From: an uncultured Gemmatimonadales bacterium
GTDB taxonomy: Bacteria; Gemmatimonadota; Gemmatimonadetes; Gemmatimonadales; GWC2-71-9
Assembly (NCBI GenBank): GCA_963751925.1
Contig: CAVVWJ010000002.1
Location: forward strand, 278,292-342,291
Length of the DNA: 64,000 bases
Direction of reading: 5' to 3'
In this document: piece by piece, positions 27,889 through 47,155 of the stretch
How the letters are laid out: the number at the start of each line of letters is the position of its first letter
Numbering within the stretch: the stretch's first letter is position 1
The notes under the pieces: model-generated
Told to the model about the DNA's origin: nothing
Databases searched by the model: none
What the model saw: only the letters and a program-made list of their open reading frames with translations
Translations under genes and position numbers: made by a program

Positions 27889-28885
27889 TCTTACCTTCAC
27901 GGTCTCGGCCGATCTGACGGAGCGGCTCGACCGCTTTCTGGCCGATCAGCTGGGACTCTCGCGCACGCAGGCGGCGCGGCTGGTTGCTGACAAGCTGGTG
28001 GAGATCGATGGAAAGCCGGCCCGTGCCTCGCGGCTCATCGCAAAAGGTCAGCGCGTCACTGTCCGCATCCCCGATCAACAGCCGCCCCGGACCCTCCAAC
28101 CCAATCCGATCCCACTCTCAATTGTCTTTGAGGACGATGACCTCGCCGTCATCGATAAACCGGCCGGCCTGGTCGTACATCCGGCGCCGGGGCACTGGGA
28201 CGATACCCTGGTGAACGCGCTCGTAGCGCGCGGAACTACCCTATCCGGTGGAGCGGAGGGGCGGCCCGGTATCGTGCACCGTTTGGATCGGGATACCTCC
28301 GGCCTCATGATCATCGCCAAGACGGACCTGGCTCATCGCCGCCTGGGGGCTGCCATCGCCGCCCGCAGGGTGCGCCGAAGTTACGCCGCACTGGCCTGGG
28401 GCCACCTCGACTCCACCGAGCTTCGCATCGACGCCGCCATCGCCCGGCACCCCCAGGATCGAAAACGGATGGCTATTTCTCCCCTCGGCCGCACCGCGAG
28501 GACCGACGCCTCAGTAGTGGCACGATTCGGTGTCGCGGAGCTGCTCCGGCTGGAGCTTCATACCGGCCGCACCCATCAGATTCGGGTGCACCTGGAGCAC
28601 GTCGGCCACCCGATTGTGGGTGATCCGGTCTACGCCGGCGGCGGCAGCCGGCGGATCTCCGGCGCGGCCCGAAAAGCGGCCGAGCTGCTGGAGCGGGCGA
28701 CGCCCCGTCAAGCGCTCCACGCTGCTGCTCTGGCATTCCGCCATCCTCTGAGCGGAGCACCACTTGAGTTCCACTCCGAGTGGCCGACTGATTTACGTGC
28801 TGCACTGGTTGTCTTGGGTGGCCAAGAACTTGTTGCTCGCCCCGATCCCCTCAGCTATCTTCGGTTCTTTAATAGAGATGGCTAA
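27881..28885 (+). CDS. rluD: 23S rRNA pseudouridine synthase, RluD family (start uncertain)
   Basis: The catalytic motif HRLDRDTSGLMI and HQIRVHL are present. An S4 domain (ERLDRFLADQLGLSRTQAARLVADKLVEIDGKP) is encoded upstream of the first ATG/GTG/TTG (GTG 27998). The only start-like codon before it is CTG 27881. Confidence 0.8.
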   Translation: MPDLTFTVSADLTERLDRFLADQLGLSRTQAARLVADKLVEIDGKPARASRLIAKGQRVTVRIPDQQPPRTLQPNPIPLSIVFEDDDLAVIDKPAGLVVHPAPGHWDDTLVNALVARGTTLSGGAEGRPGIVHRLDRDTSGLMIIAKTDLAHRRLGAAIAARRVRRSYAALAWGHLDSTELRIDAAIARHPQDRKRMAISPLGRTARTDASVVARFGVAELLRLELHTGRTHQIRVHLEHVGHPIVGDPVYAGGGSRRISGAARKAAELLERATPRQALHAAALAFRHPLSGAPLEFHSEWPTDLRAALVVLGGQELVARPDPLSYLRFFNRDG

Positions 28886-29315
28886 CTCTCCCGCGCTCCA
28901 CGCCGTCGTATTTCGAATCGGTGAGGTTGTCTGCGCGGCCCCGGCAGGGATCGTGCGTGAGATCCTCCCTCGCCTCCCGGCTACCCGAATTCCGGGCGTG
29001 CCGGACGCGGTCGAAGGGCTGGTGAACGTCCGTGGCAGCCTCCTCACGGTTCTGGATGGACATCTGCTGCTCCAGCAGGAGCGGCGTCCGTTGGATGAGG
29101 GCGCGATCATCGTTCTCCAAGTCAAAGGACGCAACTACGGCTTGGGAGTCAGCGCGGTGCTCGACTTCCTCGAGGTGCCTGCAGCTTCCGTCGTCGAACG
29201 GCGCGAGCTGCCCGGTGTCGATCCCCGACTGGTCAAGGCCGTCGGGCTCGGGGCCGACCAGCACTTCATCCTGCTCGACGTAGACGCGTTGTTTGCGCCG
29301 ATCATCGGAGGCTAA
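28878..29315 (+). CDS. cheW: CheW-like coupling protein (first gene of the chemosensory/polarity cluster)
   Basis: VVFRIGEVVCAAPAGIVREILPRLPATRIPGVPDAVEGLVNVRGSLLTVLD is a CheW fold pattern. ATG 28878 overlaps the rluD stop by 8 nt. Confidence 0.85.
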   Translation: MANSPALHAVVFRIGEVVCAAPAGIVREILPRLPATRIPGVPDAVEGLVNVRGSLLTVLDGHLLLQQERRPLDEGAIIVLQVKGRNYGLGVSAVLDFLEVPAASVVERRELPGVDPRLVKAVGLGADQHFILLDVDALFAPIIGG

Positions 29316-29351
29316 GGAACCGGATCCTGCCACCACGCACGGAGGGAGTCT

Positions 29352-29714
29352 GTGAATCAAACTGTGCTCGTCTGCGACGATGCCATCTTCATGCGCACCA
29401 TGATCAGCGACATCCTGAGCCAGGCTGGCTTCGAGATCGTCGGGGAAGCCGAATCTGGGCTGCAGGCGGTCGAGAAGTACCGCGTGCTGAAGCCGGATCT
29501 GGTCACCATGGATATCGTCATGCCGGACATGGGTGGCATCGAGGCCGTGCGCGAGATCTGTAAGACCGATCCCGAAGCCAAAATTCTGATGTGCAGCGCG
29601 ATGGGCCAGCAGGCGCTGGTGGTCGAAGCCATCCAGGCCGGGGCCAAAGATTTCGTGGTCAAACCGTTCCAGCCTTCCCGCGTGCTCGAGGCAGTCCAAC
29701 GCGTCCTGGCTTGA
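29352..29714 (+). CDS. cheY: CheY single-domain response regulator
   Basis: VLVCDDAIFMR, LVTMDIVMPDMGG, MCSAMG and KDFVVKPF. GTG start is preceded by GGAGGGA. Confidence 0.9.
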   Translation: MNQTVLVCDDAIFMRTMISDILSQAGFEIVGEAESGLQAVEKYRVLKPDLVTMDIVMPDMGGIEAVREICKTDPEAKILMCSAMGQQALVVEAIQAGAKDFVVKPFQPSRVLEAVQRVLA

Positions 29715-29717
29715 CGG

Positions 29718-31604
29718 ATGGACCTGTCGAAGTACGTCGCTCTGTTCCTGGCAGAGAGCCGGGAGCACCTCGGCGCGTGCAATCAGTCTCTGCTGGCGTG
29801 GGAGCGTGACCCAGCTGCCGTCGAGCCGGTCGACCGGGTCTTCCGAGCCATCCACACGATCAAGGGGATGGCGGCCACGATGGGCTACTCGGGGCTGGCC
29901 CAACTGGCTCACCGCACCGAAAACCTGCTCGATGCACTGCGAAAAAGCCGAGTACCGGCCACACCCGCCGTCTTCCAGCTTCTCTTCCGGGCGATTGATA
30001 CGCTGGGCCGCGGGGTGGAAGAGGTGGCGACGGGAGCTGAGGGGGAAGCAGACCAGGAACTGATCGCGGAGCTCGACACCGCCTCAGCGCGACAGGTGGA
30101 TGCGGTGACGGTGACGGCGGTCCCAGGCGATTTGCCTGCCACTCCGCCAGTGCCGGCAGAGCCGCAGTTCCGGCGCGCCACCGACGCTCCCCGCACTCGC
30201 TCGGTACAGGTCGCCATCCGGACGGCGGCGGTCATGCGGGGTGCGCGAGCGGCGCTGGTGCTTCGCCGGGCCGAAGGTCTCGGGGTGGTGAGCGCAGTCC
30301 GCCCGCCGATCACCCAGCTGGAACGGGATGAGTTCGACGGCCGCTTTTCCTTTCGACTCTCGACTCGGGCCGAGGACGCGGCGGTCGAGGTCGAACTTCG
30401 CGCCGTGGGAGAGGTCGACTCGATTCAGTTCGATGCGACTGCAGCGGGCCCAGAGACGGTTCGTCGCGGCAGGCAGATCCGGGTGGACCTGGAGCGGCTC
30501 GACGCGCTGATGAAGCAGGTCGGAGAGCTCGTCGTCGCCAAGAACCGCCTCACCGTGCTGTCGGACGACTCGGCCGACCCGGTGCTCGGCGAACTCAGCG
30601 AGCGGATTTCGCGGCTCGTCTCCGCCATGCAGGCGGAGGTGCTCGCGGCGAGGATGACGCCGGTGGGCGAAGTATTCGAGCGGTTCCCCCGCTTGGCGCG
30701 GGACCTCTCTCGCGACCTCGGCAAGCGGATTCGCTTCGACATGGAAGGTGAGGAGATCGAGCTCGATCGCTCGATTCTGGATGAGATCGGTGAGCCGTTA
30801 CTCCATCTCATCCGGAATGCGGCCGACCACGGGATCGAGTCCCCAGACGAGCGGGCGGCCGCGGGCAAGCCCAGCGAAGGGCGCATCCTCCTCTCGGCGG
30901 CACGAGAGCGGAACACGGTAGCCATTCGCGTAGTGGACGATGGCCGCGGCATCGATCGAGAGAAGATCCTGGCCAAAGCCAGGCGTGAAGGCGCGGCGCC
31001 TGAAGCTGAGGCCCTGAGCGACGATCTCCTGGTCCGGGTCCTCGCCCGACCCGGGTTCAGCACCGCTGGCACGGTCAGCGGAGTCTCGGGCAGAGGCGTG
31101 GGCGTGGATGTGGTCATGACCCGGGTTCGAGCGCTCGGTGGGACCCTCGAGGTCCGGAGCGAGCTCGGCCGCGGCAGCACTTTCCTGATGCGGGTGCCCC
31201 TGACTCTCGCCATCGTCCGGGCCTTACTGGCCGAGGCGGGTGGCGAGCGCTACGCGCTGCCGCTGGCCTATGTGGCCGAGACGGTCGAGTTCGACCAGCG
31301 CGCGGTGACCTCGGTTCGTGAGCGCGAGGCGTTGGTGGTGCGGGATCAGGTGATCCCAACGGTTCATCTGCGGGATCTTGTCGCCTGCGGCTCGAATGTT
31401 GGGAGGGTGGGGAAGAGACCTACGGTGATTCTCGAGGTCGGAGAACGGCGAACCGCGCTGGTGGTCGACGCTTTGGTGGGGCAGCAGGACATCGTAGTCG
31501 AGCCGTTCGATGCTCCCCGTGGGCTCCCGGCCTTTGTGGGCGGGGCAACGATTCTGGCAGACGGCGCTCCCGCTCTCATACTGGACGCCGCGGCGCTCCT
31601 TTAG
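29718..31604 (+). CDS. cheA: chemotaxis histidine kinase CheA
   Basis: Hpt P1 domain FRAIHTIKGMAATMG, dimerisation region IRVDLERLDALMKQVGELV, HATPase motifs HLIRNAADHGIE / DDGRGID / GVSGRGVGVDVV, and a C-terminal CheW-like P5 domain. Confidence 0.95.
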   Translation: MDLSKYVALFLAESREHLGACNQSLLAWERDPAAVEPVDRVFRAIHTIKGMAATMGYSGLAQLAHRTENLLDALRKSRVPATPAVFQLLFRAIDTLGRGVEEVATGAEGEADQELIAELDTASARQVDAVTVTAVPGDLPATPPVPAEPQFRRATDAPRTRSVQVAIRTAAVMRGARAALVLRRAEGLGVVSAVRPPITQLERDEFDGRFSFRLSTRAEDAAVEVELRAVGEVDSIQFDATAAGPETVRRGRQIRVDLERLDALMKQVGELVVAKNRLTVLSDDSADPVLGELSERISRLVSAMQAEVLAARMTPVGEVFERFPRLARDLSRDLGKRIRFDMEGEEIELDRSILDEIGEPLLHLIRNAADHGIESPDERAAAGKPSEGRILLSAARERNTVAIRVVDDGRGIDREKILAKARREGAAPEAEALSDDLLVRVLARPGFSTAGTVSGVSGRGVGVDVVMTRVRALGGTLEVRSELGRGSTFLMRVPLTLAIVRALLAEAGGERYALPLAYVAETVEFDQRAVTSVREREALVVRDQVIPTVHLRDLVACGSNVGRVGKRPTVILEVGERRTALVVDALVGQQDIVVEPFDAPRGLPAFVGGATILADGAPALILDAAALL

Positions 31605-31613
31605 GAGGATGGC

Positions 31614-32234
31614 ATGGAAGACGTGCGTGACCTGAAGGACTCGCAGCTCGATGCCATCCGCGAGGTGGCCAATATCGGCGCCGGCCACGCCGCCACTGCG
31701 CTATCGCAAATGACCAATCGCACCATCATGATCACGGTGCCCCGCGTCAAAGTACGTCCCATCGAGGATGTCTGCGAGATGATCGGGAGCCGCGACGAGA
31801 TCATCGCCGCCGTCCTCATGCACATGATGGGCGATCTCACTGGCCGGGCGATGGTGTTGTTTCCCGAGGCCCAGGCGCGTACCATCTGCGACTTTCTCTT
31901 CCGGCGGGAACTGGGCACCACCAAGACATTCGATCCGATGGAGCAATCCGGCCTCAAGGAGGCCGGCAACATCCTGGCGAGCGCCTACCTGAACGCGCTG
32001 AGCGACTTCATGGGGATGATGCTGGTGCCCTCGGTGCCGAGCCTCGTCATCGATCTCAGTGGCGCGATCCTGACGACCGCAGCCCTCAACTTCGGGCACG
32101 ACAGAGATTACGCCTTTTGCGTCGAGACCTCCTTTCGGGTGGAGGGCTCGGCTCAACCACTCGGCGGCCACTTCCTGCTGTTGCCTGACGTCGCGTCCCT
32201 GCGCTCCATCTTCGACGCCATCCGCCTGCCCTAA
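31614..32234 (+). CDS. cheC: CheC-family CheY-P phosphatase
   Basis: Both E-x2-N-x22-P active-site motifs are intact: EVAN + 22 residues + P, and EAGN + 22 residues + P. AGGAGG lies upstream. Confidence 0.85.
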   Translation: MEDVRDLKDSQLDAIREVANIGAGHAATALSQMTNRTIMITVPRVKVRPIEDVCEMIGSRDEIIAAVLMHMMGDLTGRAMVLFPEAQARTICDFLFRRELGTTKTFDPMEQSGLKEAGNILASAYLNALSDFMGMMLVPSVPSLVIDLSGAILTTAALNFGHDRDYAFCVETSFRVEGSAQPLGGHFLLLPDVASLRSIFDAIRLP

Positions 32235-32237
32235 TCG

Positions 32238-34943
32238 ATGCCAGCCCCTGCGCTCTCCGAGCGCGATCTCACGGTGCTCCGCTCCTTCGCCCGTCGGATC
32301 GATCCTTCAGATGCCGGGGCCCACAACAACCTCGGCGTTCTCTATTACCAGAAGGGTCTGATCGAGGAGGCGATCGCTGAGTTCGCGCGGGCGCTCGAGC
32401 TCGATGCCAAGATGCAGGTGGCACAGACCAATCTCGAGATCGCCTATCGGGAGAGCGGACACTACGACCGGCGCATCGGCGATCTTCGGGATCAGGTTGC
32501 CCGCCTGCCGGGAGACCGAGCAGCACGCTGGGAGCTGGGTCGGGCGTACGCATCGCTTGGACGCCACGAGGAGGCGGTCGCTGAATTTCAGGCGCTGCTC
32601 TCCAATTACCCCGACGATGTTCCCGCTCTGCTGCAGCTGGGACTCGCCGAAAAGGCCCGAGGCCGGCTGGATGCGGCGAGCGATTGGCTGGCCCGAGCGT
32701 GCGAAAAAGATCCCGAAAGCCCGGTCCCGCGATTTCACCGCGGCGAGGTGCTGTACAACCGGGGCTTGAATGAGCTCGCGCTGGTCTCCCTCAAGGATGC
32801 CATCGCCCGGAACCCCGACTACGCCGAAGCGCATTATTTAATGGCGTTCGTCTACGGCGACCTGGGTCAGCACGAGGCGGCCCGCGCGGCGACCAAGCGG
32901 GCAGTGGCACTCAATCCGATGCTGGCGCGCGCGCAGGCGAATCTCGCGTTGGAGGGTGGCACCCTTCAGCGTCCCTCGCCGGAGCATGCCCGAAACGGCG
33001 GTTCGGCCGCAACGCCTGGTCCAGCGGTGCCGCAACCGGTAGCGGGCGCCCCGTTGGCGCACTACAACAACGGGACGACGCTTCGCCAGAAGGGGTTTCT
33101 CGAAGACGCGGTCAAAGAGTACCAGTCCGGCCTCGACCAGGGAGAAGATCGTCGGCTCAATCTTCAGGCGCTGGCCGAGGTACATCTTCTGCGGCGAGAT
33201 CTCCCGGCCTCGCTCGCGCTCTACGATGAGCTGGTGGGAGACTACCCGGATTCGCCCAAGCTTTGGAACGAGCGTGGGGTCTGCCTGCATCAGGCGGGAA
33301 ATCGGGAGGACGCCCTCGTCTCCTACGAGAAGGCCGTTGTAGCCGATCCCGCGTACAAGCTGGCATGGAACAATCTCGGCGTCCTGCGAGCCGGCGAGTT
33401 GTCAGGTGACGGTGCCGTTGCTGCGCTGCGATACGCCCTCGATGGCTCGCAGCCACTGTTCACGGCGCGTCTCAATCTGGCGCTGCTGTACCTGCAGCGC
33501 CGCCAGCATAAGGCCGCCCTCGAGGAGTACCAACGGGCCCTCACCGAGCAGCCATCCAGTGCGGTCGGGTGGAATGGTGTCGGCCTGGTGATGATGGAGC
33601 TCAAGCGCTACGAGGAGGCGCGGAACGCGTTCGGCCGTGCGGTCGACGCCGATGCCAACTTTGCGGCGGCGCATTACAACCTGAGCTTCATCCTGAGCCA
33701 GCTCGGGGACTTCGACGGAGCCCTGCGGGAAACCCGTCGGGCACTCGAGCTCGAGCCGCTGTACGTCCCGCAGAAGTTCGCCCTGGCGATCGACCTGCAG
33801 TACGAAGATCGCACCATTGCGATTGCGCCCGAGCTCGTGGCGGACGTCAGCGGGGACGAGCTTGCCGGCGAGTTCAACTACGATGCGCCTGCCCTCGATC
33901 AGCTGTTCGACGAGCTGGCACCGTCGCTGCCGCAGGAACCTGTCCCCGCGGACGACGATTCCCTGGACCTTGCCCGCGATCTCATTCGGAAGGGTCTGCT
34001 GGACGCTGCCGCGGCCGAGCTGGCGCGGACCTCCAGCCGCGCGGCCCCGCGCCCGGCCACCTCGGTCCTTCTGGGAGACATCTTCGCCAAGCGCGGCCTC
34101 TACGGCGAGGCGCTCGAGCGCTATCGGACGGCGCGCAGCATGGTGCCAGACGATCGGGATGCAACCCTGGGTGAGATCCGCGCACTGCTCTCCCTCGGCT
34201 GGGCTCCCGAGGCCCTCCCGTTGGCCGATGCCCTCGCCGCTCGCCTTGGCAAAGATGTCGATGTCCTGGCTGCTCGCGCCCGGGCGCGCATTGCGACTGG
34301 CGATGCTGCTGGGGCACTCGACTCCATTCGTCAGGCACAATCATTCGTCCCCGCCCGAGCTGATCTTCTCCACCTCCAGGCGCAGGCATCAGTTGGCCTG
34401 GGCGACCGGACCGCGGCGCTGGCGGCGTTCAACGCCGCGCTCCAGCTCGATCCTTCGCTGGTGCGGGTCTGGGTCGAGCTCGGCGCCCTGGAAGAGGACC
34501 GCCGCAATTGGACGGGCGCGCGTTCCGCCTACGAACGGGCCCTCGACCTGCTCCCAACCTTCGGTACTGCCGCCCTGGCACTGGCCGATCTGCTGCGCCG
34601 AACCGAGTCGCCCCGGGCCGCAGTGCCCGTTCTGGTTCGCCTGCTGGAAGCTGATCCGTACGAGCTGGAGGCATTGACCGCGCTGGGGCGCGCACTGCTC
34701 GAGGATGGGCGCACTGTCCAGGCGAGAGAGGCATTCGCCCGGGTGCTGCGCTTCGATCCCGATCATGCCGCCGCCCTGTACCACCAGGGCACCTGCTTCG
34801 CCCGGGAGCGGCAGTTCGAGGAAGCGGTCCAGGCCTGGGAGAGGGTAGTCGAGCTGGCTCCCGAAGGACCCTATGCCAGCGAGGCCCGCAGCCGCTCCCG
34901 CTCCGCCCGCGATCTGCAGCACATCTTCGCGACGGCGGGCTGA
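32238..34943 (+). CDS. 901-aa tetratricopeptide-repeat protein
   Basis: The whole length reads as consecutive TPR units (e.g. AHNNLGVLYYQKGLIEEAIAEFARALELD, AWNNLGVL..., AHYNLSFILSQLGDFDGALRETRRALELEP). No other domain is visible. Confidence 0.85.
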   Translation: MPAPALSERDLTVLRSFARRIDPSDAGAHNNLGVLYYQKGLIEEAIAEFARALELDAKMQVAQTNLEIAYRESGHYDRRIGDLRDQVARLPGDRAARWELGRAYASLGRHEEAVAEFQALLSNYPDDVPALLQLGLAEKARGRLDAASDWLARACEKDPESPVPRFHRGEVLYNRGLNELALVSLKDAIARNPDYAEAHYLMAFVYGDLGQHEAARAATKRAVALNPMLARAQANLALEGGTLQRPSPEHARNGGSAATPGPAVPQPVAGAPLAHYNNGTTLRQKGFLEDAVKEYQSGLDQGEDRRLNLQALAEVHLLRRDLPASLALYDELVGDYPDSPKLWNERGVCLHQAGNREDALVSYEKAVVADPAYKLAWNNLGVLRAGELSGDGAVAALRYALDGSQPLFTARLNLALLYLQRRQHKAALEEYQRALTEQPSSAVGWNGVGLVMMELKRYEEARNAFGRAVDADANFAAAHYNLSFILSQLGDFDGALRETRRALELEPLYVPQKFALAIDLQYEDRTIAIAPELVADVSGDELAGEFNYDAPALDQLFDELAPSLPQEPVPADDDSLDLARDLIRKGLLDAAAAELARTSSRAAPRPATSVLLGDIFAKRGLYGEALERYRTARSMVPDDRDATLGEIRALLSLGWAPEALPLADALAARLGKDVDVLAARARARIATGDAAGALDSIRQAQSFVPARADLLHLQAQASVGLGDRTAALAAFNAALQLDPSLVRVWVELGALEEDRRNWTGARSAYERALDLLPTFGTAALALADLLRRTESPRAAVPVLVRLLEADPYELEALTALGRALLEDGRTVQAREAFARVLRFDPDHAAALYHQGTCFARERQFEEAVQAWERVVELAPEGPYASEARSRSRSARDLQHIFATAG

Positions 34944-34946
34944 GCC

Positions 34947-37639: not shown

Positions 37640-37644
37640 CTGAT

Positions 37645-38247
37645 ATGTCTCTGGTCAACTTCACAGCGCGTGAGATCACCTGCAAGATCGTCTACTACGG
37701 TCCGGGACGGTCCGGCAAGACGACCAACCTGCAGTACGTCTATGGCCGCGTGCCCGAGGCACGACGTGGGCGTATGGTCTCGCTCGCAACCCAGACCGAT
37801 CGGACGCTCTTCTTCGATTTCCTTCCTTTGGAGCTGGGGACGATTTCCGGCTTCACCACCAAGTTCCAGCTCTACACCGTCCCTGGGCAGAGCTACTACA
37901 ACGCCACTCGCAAACTCGTGCTTCAGGGCGCCGATGGTGTCGTCTTTGTCGCCGATAGCCAGGCTCGGCGATTCGATGACAACCTCGAGAGCCTGCAGAA
38001 TCTTCAGGACAATCTTCTGGGGCAGGGTGTCGACGTACGGCAGCTGCCAATCGTGTTCCAATACAACAAACAGGATCTGCCTCGGGACTTGATCCTGGGG
38101 CAGGACGAGATGGATGATGCCCTGAATTTCCGCTCGGTGCAGAGCTATTCCGCAGATGCGCTGCACGGGAGCGGCGTCTTCGAGACCCTCAAGGGCGTGT
38201 CGGAGCTGGTGCTGAAGCGGCTGGCCGCGGGAGCCCAGGTGGCATGA
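37645..38247 (+). CDS. mglA: MglA-family Ras-like GTPase
   Basis: Near-collinear with Myxococcus MglA: [25 protein letters not shown] (P-loop), [12 protein letters not shown] (intrinsic Arg), YTVPGQ (catalytic Gln), [15 protein letters not shown] (NKxD). ATG 37645 is preferred over the 37459 extension. Confidence 0.92.
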
Positions 38248-40175
38248 CCGCCACGCTGAATCCCCTGTATCGGTTCGACACCCTGGTCGTAGGCGCGGCC
38301 AACCGTCTCGCGTTCACCGCGGCCAAGGCAGTGGCCGAATCACCGGGCACGATTTACAACCCGCTGTTCATCTACGCCCGCCCTGGTCTGGGAAAGACTC
38401 ACCTGCTCATGGGTATCGGGCACGCCGCTCGGGCGATCAACCCGCAGCTGTCGGTCGAGTACCTCACCCTGGACGAGTTTGTCGAGTCGTTTCATGCCGC
38501 GGTAGCGGCAGGGCAGGGTGAGGCGTATCGCCGGCGCTTCATCGACGTCGATCTCTTGCTGGTGGACGACGTGCAATTCCTCACTCACCGCCGCGAGATG
38601 CAGGCGGAGCTCCTACGCCTGAGTGACGCCCTGCAGACAGCAAACCGCCAGATCGTCCTCACCAGCGATCGTCCGCCCGCCGAGATCGAGGCGCTCGACG
38701 AGCGGTTGATCCGCCGCTTCGCCGGCGGGCTCGTCATCGACGTGGCGGCACCCGATTACGAAACCCGGGTTGCCATTCTTCGCCGGAAAGCGGAGGAGCG
38801 CCGGGCCAAGTTCGGGAACGGCGTTCTCGAGGCTGTCGCGTCGCTGACGATCGACAACGTGCGGGAGCTGCTGGGCGCCTTGAATCGGTTGGTCGCGTTT
38901 CAGGCGGTCAGTGACACGCCGCTGCAGCCCGCCCAGGCCCGTGCCCTCGCCGGCGGCTCGGATGCGCCGGAGACCGGGCCGGTAGAACCCGCCGCGGACG
39001 AATTCGGCGACTTCCTCTCCGAGGTCTCTGCCACCGTTGCCCAGCAGGTGGATTCGTGGAAGACGAAAGTCGCCGCGGCAATTCTCCGGTGGGAAGGTGA
39101 AGGATTCCAGATCACTCGGCTGGAGAGCCTGCTGCAGCAGGAGATGACTACCGACCCGGAGCAAGTGCTTCGTCAATTTGAAGCGGACATCCGCCGGCTT
39201 CAGGCGCTCCGGACCGAAGCGGCGGAGCTGGCACCGGATCTGGCGGGCTCCAACGCATACCGCGATCCGGATGATCTCGCCGGGGCCGAGGCACTGACTC
39301 AACGCGCCCGCGACGGGGCGCACCCGCCGCCGGCACCGTCTCCCCTGTGGCTGCTGGAAGACCTGGTCGAGGCACCGGGGAACCGCATGGCCTTGCAGGC
39401 CGCGCGGGCGGTTGTGGCGGAGCCAGGGGTGCGATACAACCCGCTCGTCATCGTGGGCGCCACCGGTGTCGGCAAGACCCACCTGCTTCATGCACTGGGC
39501 AACGAGCTCGCTGCCAAGCGAAACGGTCCCATCGCGTGTCTCAGTGCCCACGAATTCACCAGCGAGCTCATCGAAGCGATCGATCGCGATGCCATCGGCG
39601 CCTGGCGCGCGAGATATCGCACTGCCGTGGCCTTCCTGCTCGATGACGTGCACCTGGTGGGCGACAAGGATCGGACCCAGGACGAGCTCTTCGTGCTGTT
39701 CAACTGGCTGATGGAAGCCGGCCGCCAGATGATCTTCACGTCTGCCGTACCCCTGGCGGACATGGTGGGCGTCGAGGCGCGGTTGCGAACCCGTCTCGAG
39801 GGCGGATTGGTGGTCGATCTTCCGGCACCAGATCGGGATATTCGTCAGCATGTGATCGAGCGACTGCTCGATGGCAAGCTGCCCCAGCCTGACGTGGAGC
39901 TGATCAACTATCTCGGGTCTCGTCCCGCGGAATCGGTGCGAACCGTGCACGGCCTGGTACAGCGGGTCCTCGCGGCGGCCGAGACCCAGGGTGTCGCCGC
40001 CACCTCCGTGCTCGCGCGTGAAGTGCTCGAAGGCGCGGTGCCGCGCGCCGCGCGACGCACTCCGAACACCCGCTCGAGCGGCGTGGTGGCCCCTGCCAGC
40101 GGGGCCCGAAGCCGGGAAAAGATCGTGTGGGAATGGCCCGACGTCGGTGACCGCATCGTCGAGGAGTGGCGCTGA
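38244..40175 (+). CDS. tandem DnaA-type AAA+ ATPase (two domain-III copies, no domain I or IV)
   Basis: Copy 1: [78 protein letters not shown]. Copy 2: [72 protein letters not shown]. No DnaA-box-binding HTH is present. Confidence 0.85.
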
Positions 40176-41794
40176 TGGCGATCAAGGGCAGCCTCAAAGA
40201 GGCCAGTCTTCCTGACGTCATCCAGCTGCTCTTTCTGGGCCGGCGGACCGGATGCCTTGCCCTCGCCGATCAGCACAACTTCGGCACCATTTATCTGGAC
40301 GAGGGACAGATCGTCTACGCCTCGATCGTGAACCGCCGCGATCGTCTGGGTGACATTCTCCTGCGAAAGGGACGGATCAGCGCCGAGCAGCTGCAGCAGG
40401 CCATCGATGCGCAGGTCGACGACCGGCAGCACAAGCTCGGCGAGATTCTCGTCGGCCTGGGAGTACTGAGCCGGGAAGAGCTGGAGGAGTACATCCGCAT
40501 CCAGATCGAGGAAGCGGTTTACTACCTGTTCACCTGGTCTTCCGGGACCTTCAACTTCGAGGCCGGCGTTCGCCCCGAACGCGAGGATTTCCTGGTCCGG
40601 ATCAGTCCCGAAGCGCTCCTGCTCGAAGGGGCCCGCCGAGTGGACGAGTGGAGCCTGATCGAGAAAAAGATTCCGTCGCTCGATCTGATCTTCTCGGTGG
40701 ACCAGAAACACATCGGTGAATCGGCCCCCACGCTCTCGGCCGAGCAGCAGCGCCTGATGCCGCTGATCGATGGCACCCGCGACGTCCGCCAGATCATCGA
40801 GGAGTCGGGGATGGTCGAGTTCGAGGTCGGCAAGGCGTTGTTCGGCCTCATCACCGCCGGCTTTGCCCATCGGGTGGGAACCTCAGCCGGGGCGACTGCC
40901 CCCAAGGTCAACGACAGTCGGGTCGAAGAGCACCGGAATCTCGGGATCGCTTTCTATAAGGCCGGGATGCTGGAAGAGGCGCTGCGTGAATTCCGCCGCG
41001 TCACCGATCTTCGGCCGTCGGACAGCAGCGCTCCTTTGTTTCTCGGACTCATCGCCATCCGGCAGGCGCGTTGGGAAGATGCGGCCGAGGCGCTGCGGCA
41101 AGCTTCAGGTTCCGGGGTGCCCAGGCCGGCGGCGCTGCACAACCTCGGCTTTGCTCTCGAGCAGCTGGGCCGCCTGGATGAGGCCGAGGCTGCCTACGGC
41201 GACGCTGCCGGACGCTCCCGCGACGACGGCCGAATCATGCTGGGCTGGAGTATCGTGGCCCTGAAACGGGGAGACTACCAGGTCGCGCTTGGCCGGATGG
41301 CCCGGGCCCGCGAGCTGCTCAACGGACGTCCCACACCCGCCCTTTGGTACTGGGCCGCGACCTTGGCCAGTGCCGGGATCAACGATGCCGAAGGCGCTCT
41401 CCGCTCGGCGAAGGACGGTGTTGCCGCTTTCCCGAACAACGCGGTGCTGCAGAACAATCTGGCAGTGCTGCTCGAGCTGAATGGCGATCTCGAGGGCGCC
41501 GAATCGATGCTCCGAGCGGCGCTGGCTGAAGATCCGGCGCTACCCCAGGTCTCCAAGAATCTGGCCGACATCCTGTATCGGAACGGACGCTTTGACGAAG
41601 CGGGCGAGGCCTACGAGCGCGCGGCAAAACTCAATCCCGAACTGGGAGACGATCTCTACTTCAAGCTCGGCAACATCGCATACAAGCGGCGAGATCACGA
41701 TCGCGCGAGGGAAAGCTGGGCCCAGGCGACATCGCTCAACCCGGGACATCAGCTGGCCCGGGCAAATCTCGAGATGCTGGATCTCTCCCAGTGA
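40175..41794 (+). CDS. PATAN/DUF4388 - TPR protein (paralogue of 34947..35987)
   Basis: [30 protein letters not shown] aligns with the N-terminus of the paralogue. Helical insertion LRKGRISAEQLQQAIDAQVDDRQHKLGEILVGLGVLSREELEEYI, then YYLFTWSSGTFNFE. The C-terminal half is TPR. The ORF track start GTG 40166 is an alternative. Confidence 0.8.
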   Translation: MAIKGSLKEASLPDVIQLLFLGRRTGCLALADQHNFGTIYLDEGQIVYASIVNRRDRLGDILLRKGRISAEQLQQAIDAQVDDRQHKLGEILVGLGVLSREELEEYIRIQIEEAVYYLFTWSSGTFNFEAGVRPEREDFLVRISPEALLLEGARRVDEWSLIEKKIPSLDLIFSVDQKHIGESAPTLSAEQQRLMPLIDGTRDVRQIIEESGMVEFEVGKALFGLITAGFAHRVGTSAGATAPKVNDSRVEEHRNLGIAFYKAGMLEEALREFRRVTDLRPSDSSAPLFLGLIAIRQARWEDAAEALRQASGSGVPRPAALHNLGFALEQLGRLDEAEAAYGDAAGRSRDDGRIMLGWSIVALKRGDYQVALGRMARARELLNGRPTPALWYWAATLASAGINDAEGALRSAKDGVAAFPNNAVLQNNLAVLLELNGDLEGAESMLRAALAEDPALPQVSKNLADILYRNGRFDEAGEAYERAAKLNPELGDDLYFKLGNIAYKRRDHDRARESWAQATSLNPGHQLARANLEMLDLSQ

Positions 41795-42612
41795 CGCAGG
41801 GTGACGAGGCAGCCTTCATGGCGCTGACACGGAAGATCTCGCGTGAGGCCGGCCTCACGCTGCAGGACTACAAGGACAAGTGCCTCCGTCGGCGCATCGC
41901 CGTCCGGATGCGGGCCTGCGGCGTCCACACGTACCCCGACTACCAGCTGGTGCTTGACGCGAGTCCGGCGGAGTACCAACGGCTCAAGGACGCCCTCACG
42001 ATCAACGTGACCCGCTTCTATCGAAACGCTGATACCTGGAACCTTCTCCGGGCCGGTCTGCTGGATGAAGTCTTTCAGGCGGCACCCGGGCCGGTGAGCG
42101 CATGGAGCGCGGGATGTTCATCGGGCGAAGAGCCCTATACCCTCGCCGTCCTCATGGCGGATCTGGTCGACCGGCAGGGTCGTCCTGAGCGGCTCGGACT
42201 GGTGACAGTTGACGCCACCGATATCGATCGGCAGTGTCTCGAGCTGGCCAAGGCCGGCCGCTATAGCCGTGACGCCATCGCCGAGGTCCCACCCGAGCTG
42301 GTCGAGCGCTACTTCGAGGAGGATGGGGCAGGGTGCCGGGTCATCGACCGGGTGCGCCAGCGTGTGGTCGTGCGCGCCCTCGATCTGAGCTCTGACCCGC
42401 CTCCGCGGCTCAATTATCAGCTCATCCTCTGCCGGAATGTTGTCATTTACTTCGGACGCGCCGCGCAGGAGCGCGTGTTCCTGGCGTTTGCCGATGCGCT
42501 CGCTCCCGGCGGGCTTCTGGTACTGGGGAAGGTGGAGACACTCTTTGGAGCCGCTAGAGAACGCCTCACGCTGCTGGATCCGCGCGAGCGGGTGTATCGG
42601 CGGACCGCATGA
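41791..42612 (+). CDS. cheR: chemotaxis protein methyltransferase CheR
   Basis: LTINVTRFYRNADTW, SAM-binding AWSAGCSSGEEPYTLAVLM, and ILCRNVVIYF. Confidence 0.9.
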   Translation: MTQGDEAAFMALTRKISREAGLTLQDYKDKCLRRRIAVRMRACGVHTYPDYQLVLDASPAEYQRLKDALTINVTRFYRNADTWNLLRAGLLDEVFQAAPGPVSAWSAGCSSGEEPYTLAVLMADLVDRQGRPERLGLVTVDATDIDRQCLELAKAGRYSRDAIAEVPPELVERYFEEDGAGCRVIDRVRQRVVVRALDLSSDPPPRLNYQLILCRNVVIYFGRAAQERVFLAFADALAPGGLLVLGKVETLFGAARERLTLLDPRERVYRRTA

Positions 42613-43097
42613 GCGGACGAGAGCTCGTCGTGCGCGTGGCCGACCTGAGAATCGGCGTAGAGGATGACACTCTGGTCACGGTGGGCCTGGGAAGCTGCGT
42701 CGCCATCCTGCTCCACGATGCCACGGCTCGAGTGGGAGGATTAGCGCACGTTCTCCTGCCATCTCCGGCGCTGAGTCGGAGCGATGGGAACCTCGCCAAG
42801 TTCCCCCAATCAGCGGTGCCCCGCCTGCTCGAGCTGATGGCCGCCGACGGCGCCAGCCCACGGCGCATCACTGCCCGTCTCGCCGGTGGAGCGAGCATGT
42901 TCGCCGCACTCGCACCGCTCGGAACGATTCACATGGGTGAGCGAAATCTGGTGGCGGCACGACAGGTCTTGAGCTTGCACGGGATCCCTCTGTCTGGCGA
43001 AGCGGTCGGCGGTGACTTCGGCCGAACGGTGCGCATGCGGGTCTCGGACGGGCGAGTCGATGTGAGCACGGTGGCGCATGGTGTCCAGCAGCTCTGA
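42609..43097 (+). CDS. cheD: chemoreceptor glutamine deamidase CheD
   Basis: [14 protein letters not shown]...[16 protein letters not shown] and [11 protein letters not shown]. Confidence 0.9.
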
Positions 43098-44151
43098 CCC
43101 GAGCCGGGTCCTGGTGGTGGACGACAGCCCGTTCTTCCGCCGGCTCCTCACCGACGTGGTCGACGGCTCGGGCGAGTTCCGCGTCGTGGCCACCGCTCGC
43201 GATGGTATGGATGCGCTGCGGAAAGTCCGCGCCCACGCTCCCGACGTCATTCTCATGGACATCGAGATGCCCGAGCTCGATGGTCTGGGTGCCATCGGAT
43301 ACATCATGGCTGAGTCGCCTCGGCCGATCGTCGTTGTGAGCGCGCATGTGGGACCGGGAATGGCCGCCGCGATTCGGGCGCTCGAGCTCGGGGCAGTGGA
43401 TCTGGTAGCCAAGGAAGAGGAGCGCGGAGCGGCGGCGACGGCCCGATTCGCCGAGCGCCTGATGGCGGTGCTGCGCACGGCCCGTGCGGCGGAAATCCGG
43501 CGGCTCGACCGCCCTGAGCGCCGCGAGGGTGTGGTAGCGGCAGCAACATCACAGGCCACAGGACACGCTCGCCTCTGTGTCGCAATCGCGGCCTCCACCG
43601 GAGGACCACGTGCCCTCGCCGACATCGTTCCGCTCCTTCCGACCGGCTTCCAGGCTGGGGTGCTGATCGTTCAGCACATGCCACCGAAGTTCACCCACAG
43701 CTTGGCGGAGCGGTTGGCGTCGCAGAGCCGGATGAAGGTGGTGGAGGCACAAGATCAAATGTCGCTGGAGCCGGACACAGCCTACGTGGCCCCGGGAGAC
43801 TACCACATGCGGGTTGCCACCGACTCCGGTAGAACCCGGATCACTCTGGACCAGGAGCCCTCGGTGTGGGGAGTTCGACCCGCAGCTGATCCACTGTTCA
43901 GCAGCGTCGCCCGTTGTTTTGGGCCGCGTGCCGTCGGCGTAGTCCTCACCGGGATCGGGCGTGATGGCGCCCAAGGCTTGCGGCAGATTCACGATGCGGG
44001 TGGTGTGGGCATTGCCCAGGACCGTGCGACAGCGACGATCTATGGTATGCCTGCAGCCGCGCTCCACGCCGGAGGGGCCGACTACGTCCTGCCGGTGTCC
44101 GAGATCGCGGGTCAGGTCGCAGCCGAGTTGACCCGGCTGAGGAAGCTATGA
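43078..44151 (+). CDS. cheB: chemotaxis response regulator protein-glutamate methylesterase CheB
   Basis: Receiver domain [12 protein letters not shown]...[13 protein letters not shown]. Esterase domain [25 protein letters not shown] and IAQD. Confidence 0.93.
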
Positions 44152-44573
44152 GCAGCCGGGGTGGTGGCTTCCTGCTGGTCCGCACCGGAAGCCGGAGAGT
44201 CGGGTTGGAGCTATCGCATGTTGTTCAGGTTACCGAGATCGGAGCGGTTCACCCGGTGCCGGCCATCGATCCAGCGCTCCGGGGCATTGCCGCGGTTCAC
44301 GGCCGGATGGTTCCGGTGGTGCACCTCGGGGCATTGCTGGAGGCAAGGCCGTGCCCGCCACGGGAGGGAAACCTCGCGGTATTGATCGTGGTCGATGGCC
44401 GGCACATGTGCCTGGAGATAGACGAGGCGGAGATCGTGGTACGCCAGGCGCCGCTGCCGGTCCCTCCCGGGGCGACACTTCCCTGGGCTGTCGGGGTCGC
44501 CCGCCTTCCTGACGGGCTCGTCCCGTTGCTGGATCTGTCTCTAGTCAGCTCACGTTTTCTGGAGGCGGCATGA
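44148..44573 (+). CDS. CheW-like protein (divergent)
   Basis: [57 protein letters not shown] is a CheW-like pattern. ATGA junctions on both sides. Confidence 0.8.
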
Positions 44574-45040
44574 CGAGCGACGGCTCCGACGATATCCAGA
44601 TGGTCACCTTTCGGGTCGGCCGGCAGGAATTCGCGTTCGACATCCTGCAGGTCGAGCGTATCCTTCGCTACACCGTTCCCTCGCCGCTTCCGAAAGCCCC
44701 CCGCTTTCTCGAGGGAGTGATGCCGTATGGCGATGGTGCCATTCCGGTGATCGACTTACGGAAGCGCTTCGAGCTGGACGCGCCGATCAAAGAAGAAACC
44801 CGCCTGATGGTTCTGGAGCTGGAGGTCCAGCGGGTGGGCGTGCTGGTGGATGAGGTCAATGAGGTCATACGGGTCGACAGCACCACCATCACCGCTCCTG
44901 GGCGAGTCGTGAGCGGCCTCGCGGCCGAGTACATCGCCGGCATCATCAGCATGCCGGAGCGGACCATCATCATCCTCAACGCGCGGAAACTGCTCTCGTC
45001 CAACGAGCGCCTCGCCCTCACCGAGCTGGGAGCCGCGTAG
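44570..45040 (+). CDS. cheW: CheW coupling protein
   Basis: MVTFRVGRQEFAFDILQVERILRYTVPSPLPKAPRFLEGVMPYGDGAIPVIDLRKRF and VLVDEVNEVIRV. Confidence 0.85.
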   Translation: MTSDGSDDIQMVTFRVGRQEFAFDILQVERILRYTVPSPLPKAPRFLEGVMPYGDGAIPVIDLRKRFELDAPIKEETRLMVLELEVQRVGVLVDEVNEVIRVDSTTITAPGRVVSGLAAEYIAGIISMPERTIIILNARKLLSSNERLALTELGAA

Positions 45041-45913
45041 ATGAGCGATCCGTTGCTGGTGTCGCTTCGCACCCAGCTGCAGGAGATATCAAGCCGGGTG
45101 GACAGCCAGACTACTGCGCCCGAACGTGAGGCGGTGAAGCGGGAGATCATTGCCTTATTCAAGCGGGTGGACGGGGTCCTCACTGATCTCGGACAGATGA
45201 AGGAAGACATCCGGGGCTTGGTAGAGCGGTACAAGCAGTCGAACGGCGCCACAGAAACCGGACCGGCTCCCCAGTTTACCGGCGCGCGTCCCGCCGTCCA
45301 TGCCGACCATCTCGGCGCCTCCACCTACATCGAAAAAGGTTGGAGCCTGATCTCTCTCGGGGATTATGCGGGCGCGATCCAGGCGTTGGAAAAAGCCCTG
45401 ACCCTGTCGCCGGGAGCGGTACAGGCACAATCGCTGCTCGGCTGGGCCCAGATGCTACATGAAGACTACGATGACGCCTTGGGCAACTTCTCCAAGGTGC
45501 TGATGAAGGAGCCGGCCAACGCCCTGGCGCGCATCAACGTGGGGTACATCTGTCTGAAGAAGCGTATCTTTGGTGAGGCCATCGAACATCTCTCGAAGGC
45601 GATTCGGCTCGACAACGACCGCAAGGCCACGCTCTACGCCCATTACTATCTGGGTCTGGTCTATCTCGAGCGCGAGATGTATGAGGACGCGCAGACGTTC
45701 CTGCGGAAGACCCTGAAGCTCGGCCCCAATCTCATCGAGGCTTACTTTGAGTTGGGCCGGGCACTCTGGCTGATGGGCAATCGGGAAGAAGCAGTGCAAG
45801 TGTGGGGCGAAGGCTACAAAGCCAACAAATTCAATCCCTGGGCCAAACGGTGCCAAGAGATGCTCGAGGTAGCCAAGGCCGGAGGTGAGGTCCCGCGCAG
45901 TCCGCTCTCCTAG
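45041..45913 (+). CDS. coiled-coil + TPR protein, last gene of the cluster
   Basis: An N-terminal ~70-aa helical segment is followed by TPRs (GDYAGAIQALEKALTLSP, DYDDALGNFSKVLMKEP, AHYYLGLVYLEREMYEDAQTFLRKTLKLGP). ATG directly abuts the cheW stop. Confidence 0.8.
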   Translation: MSDPLLVSLRTQLQEISSRVDSQTTAPEREAVKREIIALFKRVDGVLTDLGQMKEDIRGLVERYKQSNGATETGPAPQFTGARPAVHADHLGASTYIEKGWSLISLGDYAGAIQALEKALTLSPGAVQAQSLLGWAQMLHEDYDDALGNFSKVLMKEPANALARINVGYICLKKRIFGEAIEHLSKAIRLDNDRKATLYAHYYLGLVYLEREMYEDAQTFLRKTLKLGPNLIEAYFELGRALWLMGNREEAVQVWGEGYKANKFNPWAKRCQEMLEVAKAGGEVPRSPLS

Positions 45914-45990
45914 CTGTTCTCTGCTCGCTCGCTGCTCACATCGTCCCACTGCAGGGAAAGCCAACGGCCGTTCGGGTCGGACCAGTTACC

Positions 45991-46806: not shown

Positions 46807-46819
46807 TAGCCTAACGCCT

Positions 46820-47011: not shown

Positions 47012-47080
47012 CGAGGTGTCGGATATCACGGCACGGTCTCTGCAAGCTCACTAAAAAAGTTACAGAAGGCGTCGCCCAAA

Positions 47081-47155
47081 GGGCGAATAGCTCAGCTGGT
47101 TCAGAGCGCCTGCCTTACACGCAGGATGTCGGGGGTTCGAATCCCTCTTCGCCCA
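47081..47155 (+). tRNA. tRNA-Val (anticodon TAC)
   Basis: Folded by hand: acceptor GGGCGAA/TTCGCCC, D-arm GCTC-AGCTGGTTCA-GAGC, anticodon arm CCTGC-CTTACAC-GCAGG, T-arm GGGGG-TTCGAAT-CCCTC, discriminator A. No encoded CCA. Confidence 0.93.

Follow-up and report, generated by a model that had tools for sequence, protein, structure and literature searches.

In a 64,000-nucleotide stretch of DNA from an uncultured Gemmatimonadales bacterium (GenBank assembly GCA_963751925.1, contig CAVVWJ010000002.1, forward-strand positions 278,292 to 342,291; hereafter, the window), we found 18 consecutive plus-strand genes at 28878-45913 that interleave a chemosensory gene set with a module built around the small GTPase MglA. 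The genes for excitation (CheW, CheY, CheA, and CheC) come first and those for adaptation (CheR, CheD, CheB, and two CheW proteins) come near the end; the MglA module and several TPR, PATAN, and AAA+ genes lie between them. The same interleaved order, with tight or overlapping junctions, recurs in dozens of Gemmatimonadota species. We regard it as an even call that the cluster is a conserved functional unit combining an F1-like chemosensory core with a dedicated MglA switch, in which phosphorylated CheY (CheY-P) would act through a scaffold on MglA and, through MglA, on the polarity of type IV pili.

Conservation of the cluster supports this reading. The window MglA was scanned against one genome per species, which gave 80 loci, and all open reading frames (ORFs) of these loci were matched to the window proteins; distant members of the AAA+ family were sought with a profile search and then with exact-protein context look-ups. 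The nested order with tight junctions was found in approximately 30 near-complete and approximately 30 partial loci from distinct Gemmatimonadota species, and among loci whose MglA was at least 62% identical to the window copy (L007 to L069), it was seen in essentially every locus long enough to contain it. Two further Gemmatimonadota loci, L093 and L095, carry clusters of the nested type. The identity of the cluster MglA to the window copy ranged from 96% down to 62% and that of the other proteins reached down to 25 to 50%, and the medians of the internal junctions across genomes lay between -17 and +13 nt (here and below, negative values denote overlaps), with +4 nt at the boundary of cheC and the following TPR gene and -1 nt at that of the PATAN-TPR gene and cheR. 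CheY was the most conserved protein, with a median identity of 86% and 65% of its positions kept in at least 95% of the sequences; MglA was second (77%) and the TPR protein closing the cluster third (67%), and the medians for the upstream rluD and the first CheW were 56% and 41%. Loci with an MglA identity of 61% or less had the canonical mglB-mglA pair only (Eisenbacteria, Thermoanaerobaculia, Myxococcota, and two Gemmatimonadota metagenome-assembled genomes [MAGs]). As L071 and L075, from Longimicrobiaceae and J002 MAGs, have such canonical pairs with an MglA approximately 60% identical to that of the window, the phylum holds two MglA paralogues, one stand-alone and one embedded among che genes. 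The first-pass annotation, made from the window alone, had left open a chance juxtaposition; since the Che and Mgl parts are not unlinked in the relatives, the linkage is a phylum-level trait. Among the matches listed, proteins closely homologous to MglA or to the tandem AAA+ protein came from Gemmatimonadales and other Gemmatimonadota only, many of them from soil. Two loci with a typical cluster and flanks, L015 and L065, come from MAGs labeled Acidimicrobiia and Alphaproteobacteria and are probably binning errors.

The genes of the cluster and its immediate neighbors are as follows:

27998-28885, plus strand: rluD, pseudouridine synthase of the RluA/RluD family (Pfam PseudoU_synth_2, E = 5e-29)
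28878-29315, plus strand: CheW1, divergent coupling protein (Pfam CheW, E = 3e-22; ATG at 28878 chosen as the start)
29352-29714, plus strand: CheY, single-domain response regulator (Pfam Response_reg, E = 1e-30)
29718-31604, plus strand: CheA histidine kinase (five Pfam domains)
31614-32234, plus strand: CheC, CheY-P phosphatase (Pfam CheC in two stretches, E = 4e-22)
32238-34943, plus strand: T901, 901-residue protein consisting of TPRs (TPR families, E = 1e-69)
34947-35987, plus strand: P1, PATAN (DUF4388) protein carrying TPRs at its C terminus (Pfam DUF4388, E = 7e-31)
35998-36834, plus strand: TRb, N-terminal TPR and C-terminal Roadblock domain (Pfam TPR; Robl_LC7, 21.6 bits; alternative GTG start at 35980)
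36831-37178, plus strand: Rb1, stand-alone Roadblock/LC7 protein of 115 residues (Pfam Robl_LC7, E = 2.6e-10)
37178-37639, plus strand: Rb2, MglB homologue (match to Myxococcus xanthus MglB)
37645-38247, plus strand: MglA small GTPase (match to M. xanthus MglA)
38244-40175, plus strand: AAA2, AAA+ ATPase with tandem DnaA-domain-III modules (Pfam Bac_DnaA in two stretches, E = 1.5e-91)
40175-41794, plus strand: P2, PATAN-TPR protein (Pfam DUF4388, E = 2e-38, and TPR; alternative GTG start at 40166)
41791-42612, plus strand: CheR methyltransferase (Pfam CheR, E = 9e-46, and CheR_N; GTG start overlapping the P2 stop by 4 nt)
42609-43097, plus strand: CheD deamidase (Pfam CheD, E = 3e-23; NCBIfam CheD models match)
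43078-44151, plus strand: CheB methylesterase with an N-terminal receiver domain (Pfam CheB_methylest, E = 2e-65, and Response_reg)
44148-44573, plus strand: CheW2, divergent (Pfam CheW, E = 2e-16)
44570-45040, plus strand: CheW3, more canonical than the other two CheW proteins (Pfam CheW, E = 5e-32; NCBIfam CheW, E = 9e-21)
45041-45913, plus strand: T290, TPR protein of 290 residues (Pfam TPR families)
45991-46806, plus strand: Peptidase_MA-like protein, downstream neighbor of uncertain membership in the unit (Pfam Peptidase_MA_2, E = 4.5e-13)

In the terms of this list, the order shared across the relatives is rluD-W-Y-A-C-T901-P1-TRb-Rb1-Rb2-MglA-AAA2-P2-R-D-B-(W)-W-T290-peptidase. The ORF listing and inspection of start codons bore out the coupled run of 18 genes that the first-pass annotation had described, with junctions between -20 and +36 nt, 10 of them overlaps, and every domain call tested, from the first CheW to the last TPR protein, was recovered by Pfam and NCBIfam scans. 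The junctions in the front part are +36 (CheW1/CheY), +3 (CheY/CheA), +9 (CheA/CheC), +3 (CheC/T901), and +3 nt (T901/P1); P1 and TRb are separated by 10 nt or, if the GTG at 35980 is used, overlap by 8 nt. The middle part has -4 (TRb/Rb1), -1 (Rb1/Rb2), +5 (Rb2/MglA), -4 (MglA/AAA2), and -1 nt (AAA2/P2), and the end -4 (P2/CheR), -4 (CheR/CheD), -20 (CheD/CheB), -4 (CheB/CheW2), -4 (CheW2/CheW3), and 0 nt (CheW3/T290).

Two parts of the original description had to be revised. The operon had been called complete, which it is not, because no gene for an MCP (methyl-accepting chemotaxis protein) was found: its signature was absent from the cluster and from the whole 64-kb window, and the receptors for the chemosensory core are presumably encoded elsewhere. 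Among the related loci, L069 alone has an MCP signature (NAAIEAARAG, at approximately 11899), downstream of the cluster. Second, the unit had been taken to start at cheW; the stop of rluD overlaps the start of cheW1 by 8 nt, and the coupled string therefore comprises at least 19 genes. The median of this junction is -5 nt in 29 genomes, and with so tight an overlap the cluster appears to have been appended to the genes ileS, dksA-like, lspA, and rluD, from which read-through transcription may enter it; rluD and the cluster are probably co-transcribed. The idea of a single transcription unit held as far as spacing goes, which leaves no intergenic room at the cheC/TPR and PATAN-TPR/cheR boundaries for promoters or terminators of their own, and the cluster is probably one co-transcribed unit. 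A scan of positions 27500-47400 for promoter and terminator consensus sequences was uninformative in this respect, giving 3 promoter-like and 11 terminator-like matches versus 2.1 and 8.4 expected from shuffled sequences, and Gemmatimonadota promoters may deviate from the consensus. In 30 loci the peptidase gene comes next after the cluster, at a median distance of 77 nt, and the latest possible 3' end of the transcript is set by a tRNA-Val gene at 47081-47156.

The Che proteins are predicted to be of the F1-like (Thermotoga/Bacillus/archaeal) type, as judged by the gene complement and by matches to curated models. The complement is that of class F1, with cheA, cheW, cheY, cheB, and cheR accompanied by cheC and cheD and with a CheA of the domain order Hpt-P2-P3-P4-P5. 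This CheA (Hpt-P2-dimerization-HATPase-CheW) has a single Hpt domain and no receiver domain, retains its kinase boxes as well as the phospho-histidine motif HTIKG, and scores 433 bits with the NCBIfam model CheA_Halo versus 323 bits with that of the Escherichia coli-type CheA; its match in the PDB is Thermotoga maritima CheA. CheC matches the NCBIfam model CheC_Thtogales (E = 2.5e-50) with both ExxN active-site motifs conserved, and the motifs of CheY are similarly intact. Overall, the best curated NCBIfam models are haloarchaeal for CheA and CheY and from Thermotoga for CheC and CheD. We considered two other chemosensory classes and rejected both. The Frz class, one of those serving alternative cellular functions (ACF), has a CheA-CheY fusion kinase (FrzE) and the dedicated receivers FrzZ and FrzX, which are absent here, as receivers occur only in CheY and CheB. 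The Tfp class (Pil-Chp) is contradicted by the single Hpt, the lack of a receiver domain in CheA, and the presence of one CheY rather than a PilG/PilH pair. Of the three CheW proteins, two are divergent, and CheW2 was detected in 18 loci only, being absent or replaced in many relatives.

The GTPase proved to be an authentic MglA whose catalytic motifs are intact, and it is a paralogue specific to the cluster. It matched M. xanthus MglA (6h17, E = 6e-73) and Thermus thermophilus MglA (3t12, E = 2e-65) over residues 1 to 197 in phmmer searches and is 57% identical to the MglA of Myxococcales. It keeps the P-loop, the intrinsic arginine finger R53 (TDRTLFFDF), T78 and Q82 (YTVPGQ, with Thr for Asp in G3), and the NKQD motif, and its catalytic residues are invariant or nearly so, being found in 63 to 64 of the 64 cluster copies. 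In a neighbor-joining tree, these 64 copies formed one clade apart from canonical MglA. Similarity, residues, and the adjoining MglB homologue agree with the Group 1 MglA family as delimited by Wuichet and Sogaard-Andersen (2014). The adjoining gene, Rb2, codes for a divergent MglB homologue rather than the curated equivalog: it matches M. xanthus MglB (6h5b, E = 3.6e-10) and also T. thermophilus MglB, and scores below the cut-offs of the NCBIfam MglB model NF052242 (35 bits, E = 1e-8, versus 200) and of Pfam Robl_LC7 (17.1 versus 23). The sole homologue of Rb2 detected in other phyla is the gene directly upstream of canonical mglA, and Rb2 is presumed to be the GTPase-activating partner of the cluster MglA. 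The Roadblock domain of TRb also falls below the Pfam cut-off (21.6 versus 23 bits) and was aligned to the Rb1 profile by hhalign with a probability of 97.5% (E = 8.5e-12), and Rb1 itself matches the Roadblock protein in PDB 7f8m (E = 1e-5). Of the three Roadblock domains encoded here, those of TRb and Rb1 resemble each other most, and their mutual closeness suggests that they form a heterodimeric pair beside the MglB-like protein.

Both PATAN proteins are members of PF14332 (E values as listed above) and exceed the cut-off of NCBIfam NF053729 (38 bits) with 41.6 bits for P1 and 47.6 bits for P2. They carry TPRs in place of the C-terminal receiver (REC) domain of the PatA type found in cyanobacteria; since PATAN is fused to TPRs and not to a receiver, direct phosphorylation of these proteins is impossible. 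The helical insertions of P1 and P2 each contain two motifs resembling MshEN, a 24-residue pattern RLGxx(L/V/I)(L/V/I)xxG(L/V/I)(L/V/I)xxxxLxxxLxxQ that occurs as two tandem copies with a short spacer (PMC5013675). In both proteins the spacer is 6 residues long, with the P1 motifs located at residues 59 and 89, and the insertions are predicted sites for cyclic di-GMP (c-di-GMP). Both motifs were present in 26 of the 51 P2 orthologues and one motif in 13 more; both were present in 2 of the 44 P1 orthologues, most of which keep one. As a control, the pattern was run against other proteins of the cluster, 130,653 residues in total, and gave no matches. Our search of the literature linking PATAN with MshEN yielded no claim of c-di-GMP binding by the PATAN insertion, and a search for papers joining DUF4388, chemotaxis, and GTPase turned up only eukaryotic ones. 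Of the TPR proteins, T901 may be a scaffold or an effector of MglA, and T290 is highly conserved in its TPR region and poorly so in its N-terminal third.

The remaining middle gene, AAA2, matches the NCBIfam DnaA and Hda models. Its first module conserves Walker A, Walker B, box VII, and sensor II, and its second mainly Walker A; between the modules is a helical linker of 140 residues, and the C terminus bears a conserved WxWP tail. The AlphaFold model (predicted local distance difference test score 82) consists of two AAA+ modules and the linker only, and one of its DnaA-domain-III modules superposes on domain III of Bacillus subtilis DnaA with a TM score of 0.95, a root-mean-square deviation of 1.6 Å, and 43% identity. 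The family is large and diverse, with 18,701 matches at E up to 0.001 in a representative library; these include true DnaA and dozens of two-module representatives of approximately 650 residues and 33 to 70% identity. We rejected AAA2 as a replication initiator: it has domain III and gave no match to DnaA domain I (PF11638) or IV (PF08299), both of which were found in the true DnaA proteins recovered. The JGI annotation calls the tandem AAA+ protein "chromosomal replication initiator protein DnaA," which is misleading and a systematic mis-annotation.

The fold and motifs of AAA2, being those of DnaA domain III, nevertheless raise the question of a link to the cell cycle, in which AAA2 and MglA would couple polarity or a budding-type division to replication and the che genes would provide environmental input. 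Such a link would fit the position of the cluster immediately upstream of the rsmH-ftsI-mur genes and a second context of the TPR/AAA+ pair, in a J002 MAG, downstream of two bactofilin genes. Gemmatimonas is said in its species description to divide in a budding-like manner. As AAA2 lacks domains I and IV, and as no Hda-type clamp-binding motif was found at its N-terminus, it has no evident way to touch DNA or DnaA; moreover, the division and cell wall (dcw) genes were not next to the cluster in the stretches retrieved for the related loci L088 and L091, and the precedents for PATAN, MglA, and TPR proteins all point to motility. We therefore consider a division role highly improbable.

The loci outside the nested type throw light on the age of its parts. 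L088 (a MAG labeled Candidatus Cloacimonetes 4572_55) and L091/L092 have the order cheW-cheY-cheA-AAA_22 ATPase-long cheW-cheC-TPR (approximately 825 residues)-PATAN-tandem AAA+, without MglA, Roadblock, or adjacent adaptation genes and with flanks that differ from those in Gemmatimonadota. The recurrence with other flanks indicates that linkage of the Che and accessory genes is selected across phyla. A pair of genes absent from the window, an AAA_22 P-loop ATPase of approximately 270 residues followed by a CheW with a 150- to 200-residue N-terminal extension, is shared at 37 to 43% identity between the Cloacimonetes-labeled lineage, where it stands between cheA and cheC, and some Gemmatimonadaceae, where it stands between cheB and cheW (L095:7074-8902, L088:3743-5493, L091:4035-5923, L039, L045, and L046). 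Homologues of T901 adjoin the tandem AAA+ gene in L088 and L091 and again in L089 (positions 7373-12094, from the Gemmatimonadetes MAG J002; also L090), where a TPR gene resembling that of T901 and coding for 867 residues is directly followed by the tandem AAA+ gene; che, PATAN, and mglA genes are all missing nearby, and the two bactofilin genes lie a few kilobases upstream. This arrangement suggests a functional unit formed by the TPR/AAA+ pair alone.

On the other hand, the cultured Gemmatimonas species retain MglA. In G. phototrophica AP64 (NZ_CP011454.1, 1,872,428-1,889,101), the accessible part of the published data lists RluA (RS07750), CheW (RS07755), and a response regulator (RS07760), then a DUF4388 gene (RS07780) followed after an 83-nt gap by the GTPase (RS07785), and CheB (RS07805) (PMC9862903). 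This adjacency leaves no room for Roadblock genes in the part of the region so documented, and the PATAN gene, rather than one for MglB, directly precedes the GTPase gene. In the same source, as far as it is accessible, the RNA-seq levels of cheW, cheY, PATAN, GTPase, and cheB are similar (log counts per million of approximately 5.6 to 6.8; PMC9862903). For G. aurantiaca, GAU_1409 is listed as "PATAN>MglA>-PATAN>" and a separate canonical MglB>MglA pair as GAU_1115 (PMC4316618). The most economical reading of these variants is that a unit of Che, TPR, PATAN, and tandem AAA+ genes is the older core and that MglA joined it in Gemmatimonadota, mostly together with MglB, two further Roadblock domains, and a second PATAN-TPR protein. 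As MglA is missing from the Cloacimonetes-labeled cluster, the GTPase and Roadblock set seems to have been inserted in Gemmatimonadota into a unit that already existed. The view first taken, of a che operon with an MglA module nested inside it, is thus correct as to gene order and incomplete as to partnership, the older partners of the Che genes being the TPR, PATAN, and DnaA-like ATPase proteins.

Our proposal for how the cluster works is as follows. MCPs would control CheA, and CheY-P would bind a scaffold of the cluster, for which T901, either PATAN-TPR protein, and the TPR-Roadblock protein are candidates; the flagellar switch would not be its target or not its sole target. Binding to the scaffold would shift the cluster MglA in its GTP/GDP state or in its polar location, with Rb2 acting as GTPase-activating protein and the Rb1/TRb pair providing an MglC-like or guanine nucleotide exchange factor (GEF)-like platform. 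MglA-GTP, together with the TPR and PATAN proteins, would then direct the PilB/PilC pilus extension machinery to one pole. P2 could add a c-di-GMP input, and AAA2 may serve as an ATP-dependent assembly switch working with T901, its C-terminal tail being a plausible TPR ligand. The wiring from CheY to MglA, if direct, is something that we infer. The proposed output has parallels in that the PATAN domains of Synechocystis bind PilB1 and PilC and that MglA of Myxococcus recruits PilB through the TPR protein SgmX, with PATAN proteins among the candidates in the same study. More tentatively, and with rather less than even confidence, we suggest that Gemmatimonadota and, in a simpler version, the Cloacimonetes-labeled lineage have an undescribed class of chemosensory output, in which F1-type CheY-P acts on a device of large TPR scaffold, c-di-GMP-sensing PATAN, and tandem AAA+ proteins, joined in Gemmatimonadota by MglA, MglB, and Roadblock proteins, and through it on type IV pilus polarity rather than on a flagellar switch.

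Several observations weigh against the proposed mechanism as a whole. Spacing is the sole basis on which the cluster is taken as one co-transcribed unit. No GEF of the RomR/RomX type was found in the cluster, whose receivers are limited to CheY and CheB. Judged from the part of the region documented, the cultured Gemmatimonas have a reduced cluster that keeps MglA and misses the three Roadblock-domain genes, and in the Cloacimonetes-labeled lineage, MglA and Roadblock proteins are dispensable for the association of Che, TPR, PATAN, and AAA+ genes. As the flanks (rluD, peptidase, and dcw) are also syntenic, the conservation of order may partly be general synteny. Taken to its end, the last point amounts to a different explanation, namely that the mglA block was inserted once into an ancestral che operon and has been inherited between ileS-lspA-rluD and dcw without any functional coupling. 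The conservation of rluD upstream and of the peptidase and TPR genes downstream in most loci, and the position between universally conserved housekeeping blocks, are what it would predict. We find it very unlikely nonetheless: near-zero or overlapping junctions have been kept at every block boundary over order-level divergence, the Che/TPR/PATAN/AAA+ association recurs elsewhere with different flanks, and at least one locus, L023, has an intact cluster beside a rearranged upstream flank. Moreover, variants lose single genes and keep the interleaving, AAA2 and CheD being missing in L060 to L062 and L066, CheB and the CheW pair in L021, L027, and L030, the middle CheW in many loci, and the Roadblock trio in the cultured species.

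The final point against the proposal concerns the output. The cluster CheY is approximately 70% identical to T. maritima CheY (PDB 1tmy, E = 1e-50), a FliM-binding protein of a class that normally drives flagella, and cells of G. phototrophica and G. groenlandica bear one polar flagellum each; given the two, a flagellar output is possible, at least in the flagellated members. The cluster would then be a flagellar che operon, as its F1-like set with CheC, CheD, and a P2-containing CheA would allow, in which CheY-P acts on FliM, as it does in Thermotoga and Bacillus, and MglA determines where the polar flagellum is placed or how many there are, or else coordinates swimming and twitching. However, more than 20 of the cluster-bearing loci are from soil MAGs of distinct species, with a CheY 84 to 94% identical to that of the window, and flagellar genes have been reported in one or two of approximately 90 soil Gemmatimonadota MAGs. 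With flagellar genes so rare, type IV pilus polarity is the likeliest output, and the flagellar switch is an unlikely target of CheY in the soil species that carry the cluster. In addition, an F1-type CheY has been re-targeted to a non-flagellar motor in archaea, and in G. phototrophica a second CheA encoded elsewhere (RS15835), with a HEAT-repeat gene nearby, is reportedly upregulated in the high-calcium medium in which flagella form (PMC9862903). On balance, we judge it distinctly unlikely that the cluster is a flagellar operon.

The conserved interleaving is also compatible with a structural role, in which the MglA, MglB, Roadblock, TPR, PATAN, and AAA+ proteins would see to the placement or partitioning of the chemosensory array (or of its pole) without receiving a signal from CheY, and would be co-expressed with the che genes for this purpose. 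Positioning genes inside che operons are an established design, the examples being ParC/ParP of Vibrio and Pseudomonas and PpfA of Rhodobacter, which position arrays; these resemble the present cluster in having an NTPase module interleaved with che genes. Poles are defined by MglA systems, two of the cluster's three CheW proteins are divergent, the pair of AAA_22 ATPase and extended CheW in the relatives follows a ParC/ParP-like logic, and the accessory genes lie between those for excitation and adaptation and not at the end, where output genes often sit. Yet the ATPases here are MglA, the DnaA-like AAA+ protein, and, in the relatives, AAA_22, none of them of the ParA/MinD type; PATAN is a documented output domain on the pilus motor, the very high conservation of CheY and MglA fits direct partners better, and the J002 TPR/AAA+ pair occurs with no che genes nearby. 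We thus think array positioning unlikely, while giving it real weight.

Four further known systems bear comparison with the cluster, that of Myxococcus being the nearest in function. In Myxococcus, too, a chemosensory pathway (Frz) and MglA/MglB, with RomR-RomX and MglC, serve one behavior, MglB is accompanied by an extra Roadblock paralogue (MglC), and the network includes the TPR effector SgmX and PATAN proteins. Unlike here, the genes are unlinked, and Frz uses a CheA-CheY fusion, FrzZ, and FrzX instead of a plain CheA, a single F1-type CheY, CheC, and CheD; conversely, RomR/RomX has no counterpart in the cluster, and we know of no Myxococcus counterpart of the tandem DnaA-like ATPase. The cyanobacterial Tax, Pix, and Hmp operons similarly include genes for PATAN proteins, and their PATAN contacts the pilus extension motor and has a helical insertion related to the N terminus of PilB/MshE. 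They differ in their PATAN-REC architecture, where the cluster has PATAN-TPR, and, as described, in a Tfp-like Che core, as opposed to the F1-like core here, and in having no MglA or AAA+. Archaeal F1 systems have CheY, CheA, CheC, and CheD of the same type as the cluster. In archaea, the adaptor CheF redirects the F1-type CheY from FliM to the archaellum, a motor resembling a type IV pilus. No CheF homologue was detected among the cluster proteins with Pfam, and the presumed adaptors are the GTPase switch and the TPR, PATAN, and AAA+ proteins. Lastly, AAA2 shares the domain III fold and the motifs of its first module with DnaA and Hda, and differs from them in having two modules in one chain and in its location in a signaling cluster.

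In the window, the cluster follows a housekeeping block (tilS, ftsH, folP, ileS, dksA-like, lspA, and rluD) and is followed by the peptidase_MA-like gene, tRNA-Val, a TPR gene, tRNA-Asp, and the dcw cluster (rsmH, ftsI, murE, murF, mraY, and murD), which lies on the same strand directly downstream at 49213-57799 and onward. The TPR gene, an ORF of 595 residues at 47169-48956, is flanked by tRNA-Val(tac) at 47081-47156 and tRNA-Asp(gtc) at 49096-49171; a FlgO-like match in this protein was not significant (21.4 bits versus a cut-off of 22.6). The idea of a mobile or horizontally acquired island was rejected in view of the flat GC content of 0.61 to 0.67 across the window, the housekeeping flanks, and the vertical conservation. 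Elsewhere in the window, at 7012-9756, a nonhomologous end joining LigD is split into three consecutive genes for a primase-polymerase, an ATP-dependent ligase, and a 3'-phosphoesterase. Putative ORFs of 912 residues (9737-12475, minus strand) and 348 residues (1987-3033, plus strand) had no Pfam match at E = 1e-5.

All protein families of the cluster are known, and the logic of connecting Che proteins to MglA has a precedent. The novelty is in the combination: the first-pass annotation was aware of no report of such a composite architecture, and our search of the literature on MglA/MglB, PATAN, and Gemmatimonadota chemosensing found no description of it either. A 2014 survey of prokaryotic small GTPases gives the PATAN neighbors of the Gemmatimonas MglA and does not mention che genes (PMC4316618). 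The phylum-wide fusion of F1-type Che, MglA, PATAN, TPR, and DnaA-like genes into one unit hence appears to be undescribed. The whole presumed circuit lies in one conserved string, in a widespread soil phylum with cultivable Gemmatimonas. To our knowledge, Myxococcus is the only case in which the path from a chemosensory phosphorelay to a polarity switch based on a small GTPase has been elucidated, and there an atypical pathway is encoded by scattered genes. The string gives a short list of candidate CheY targets, and its tandem DnaA-like ATPase and large TPR protein form an uncharacterized signaling component common to another lineage. It also offers a possible explanation for the highly conserved "flagellar-type" CheY that the mostly non-flagellated soil Gemmatimonadota retain. 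If the more tentative reading of an undescribed output class is true, the cluster would be the third independent coupling of Che proteins to a pilus-type motor, after archaeal CheF and the Pil-Chp/PatA-type regulators, and AAA2 would be the first DnaA-fold ATPase working in signaling.

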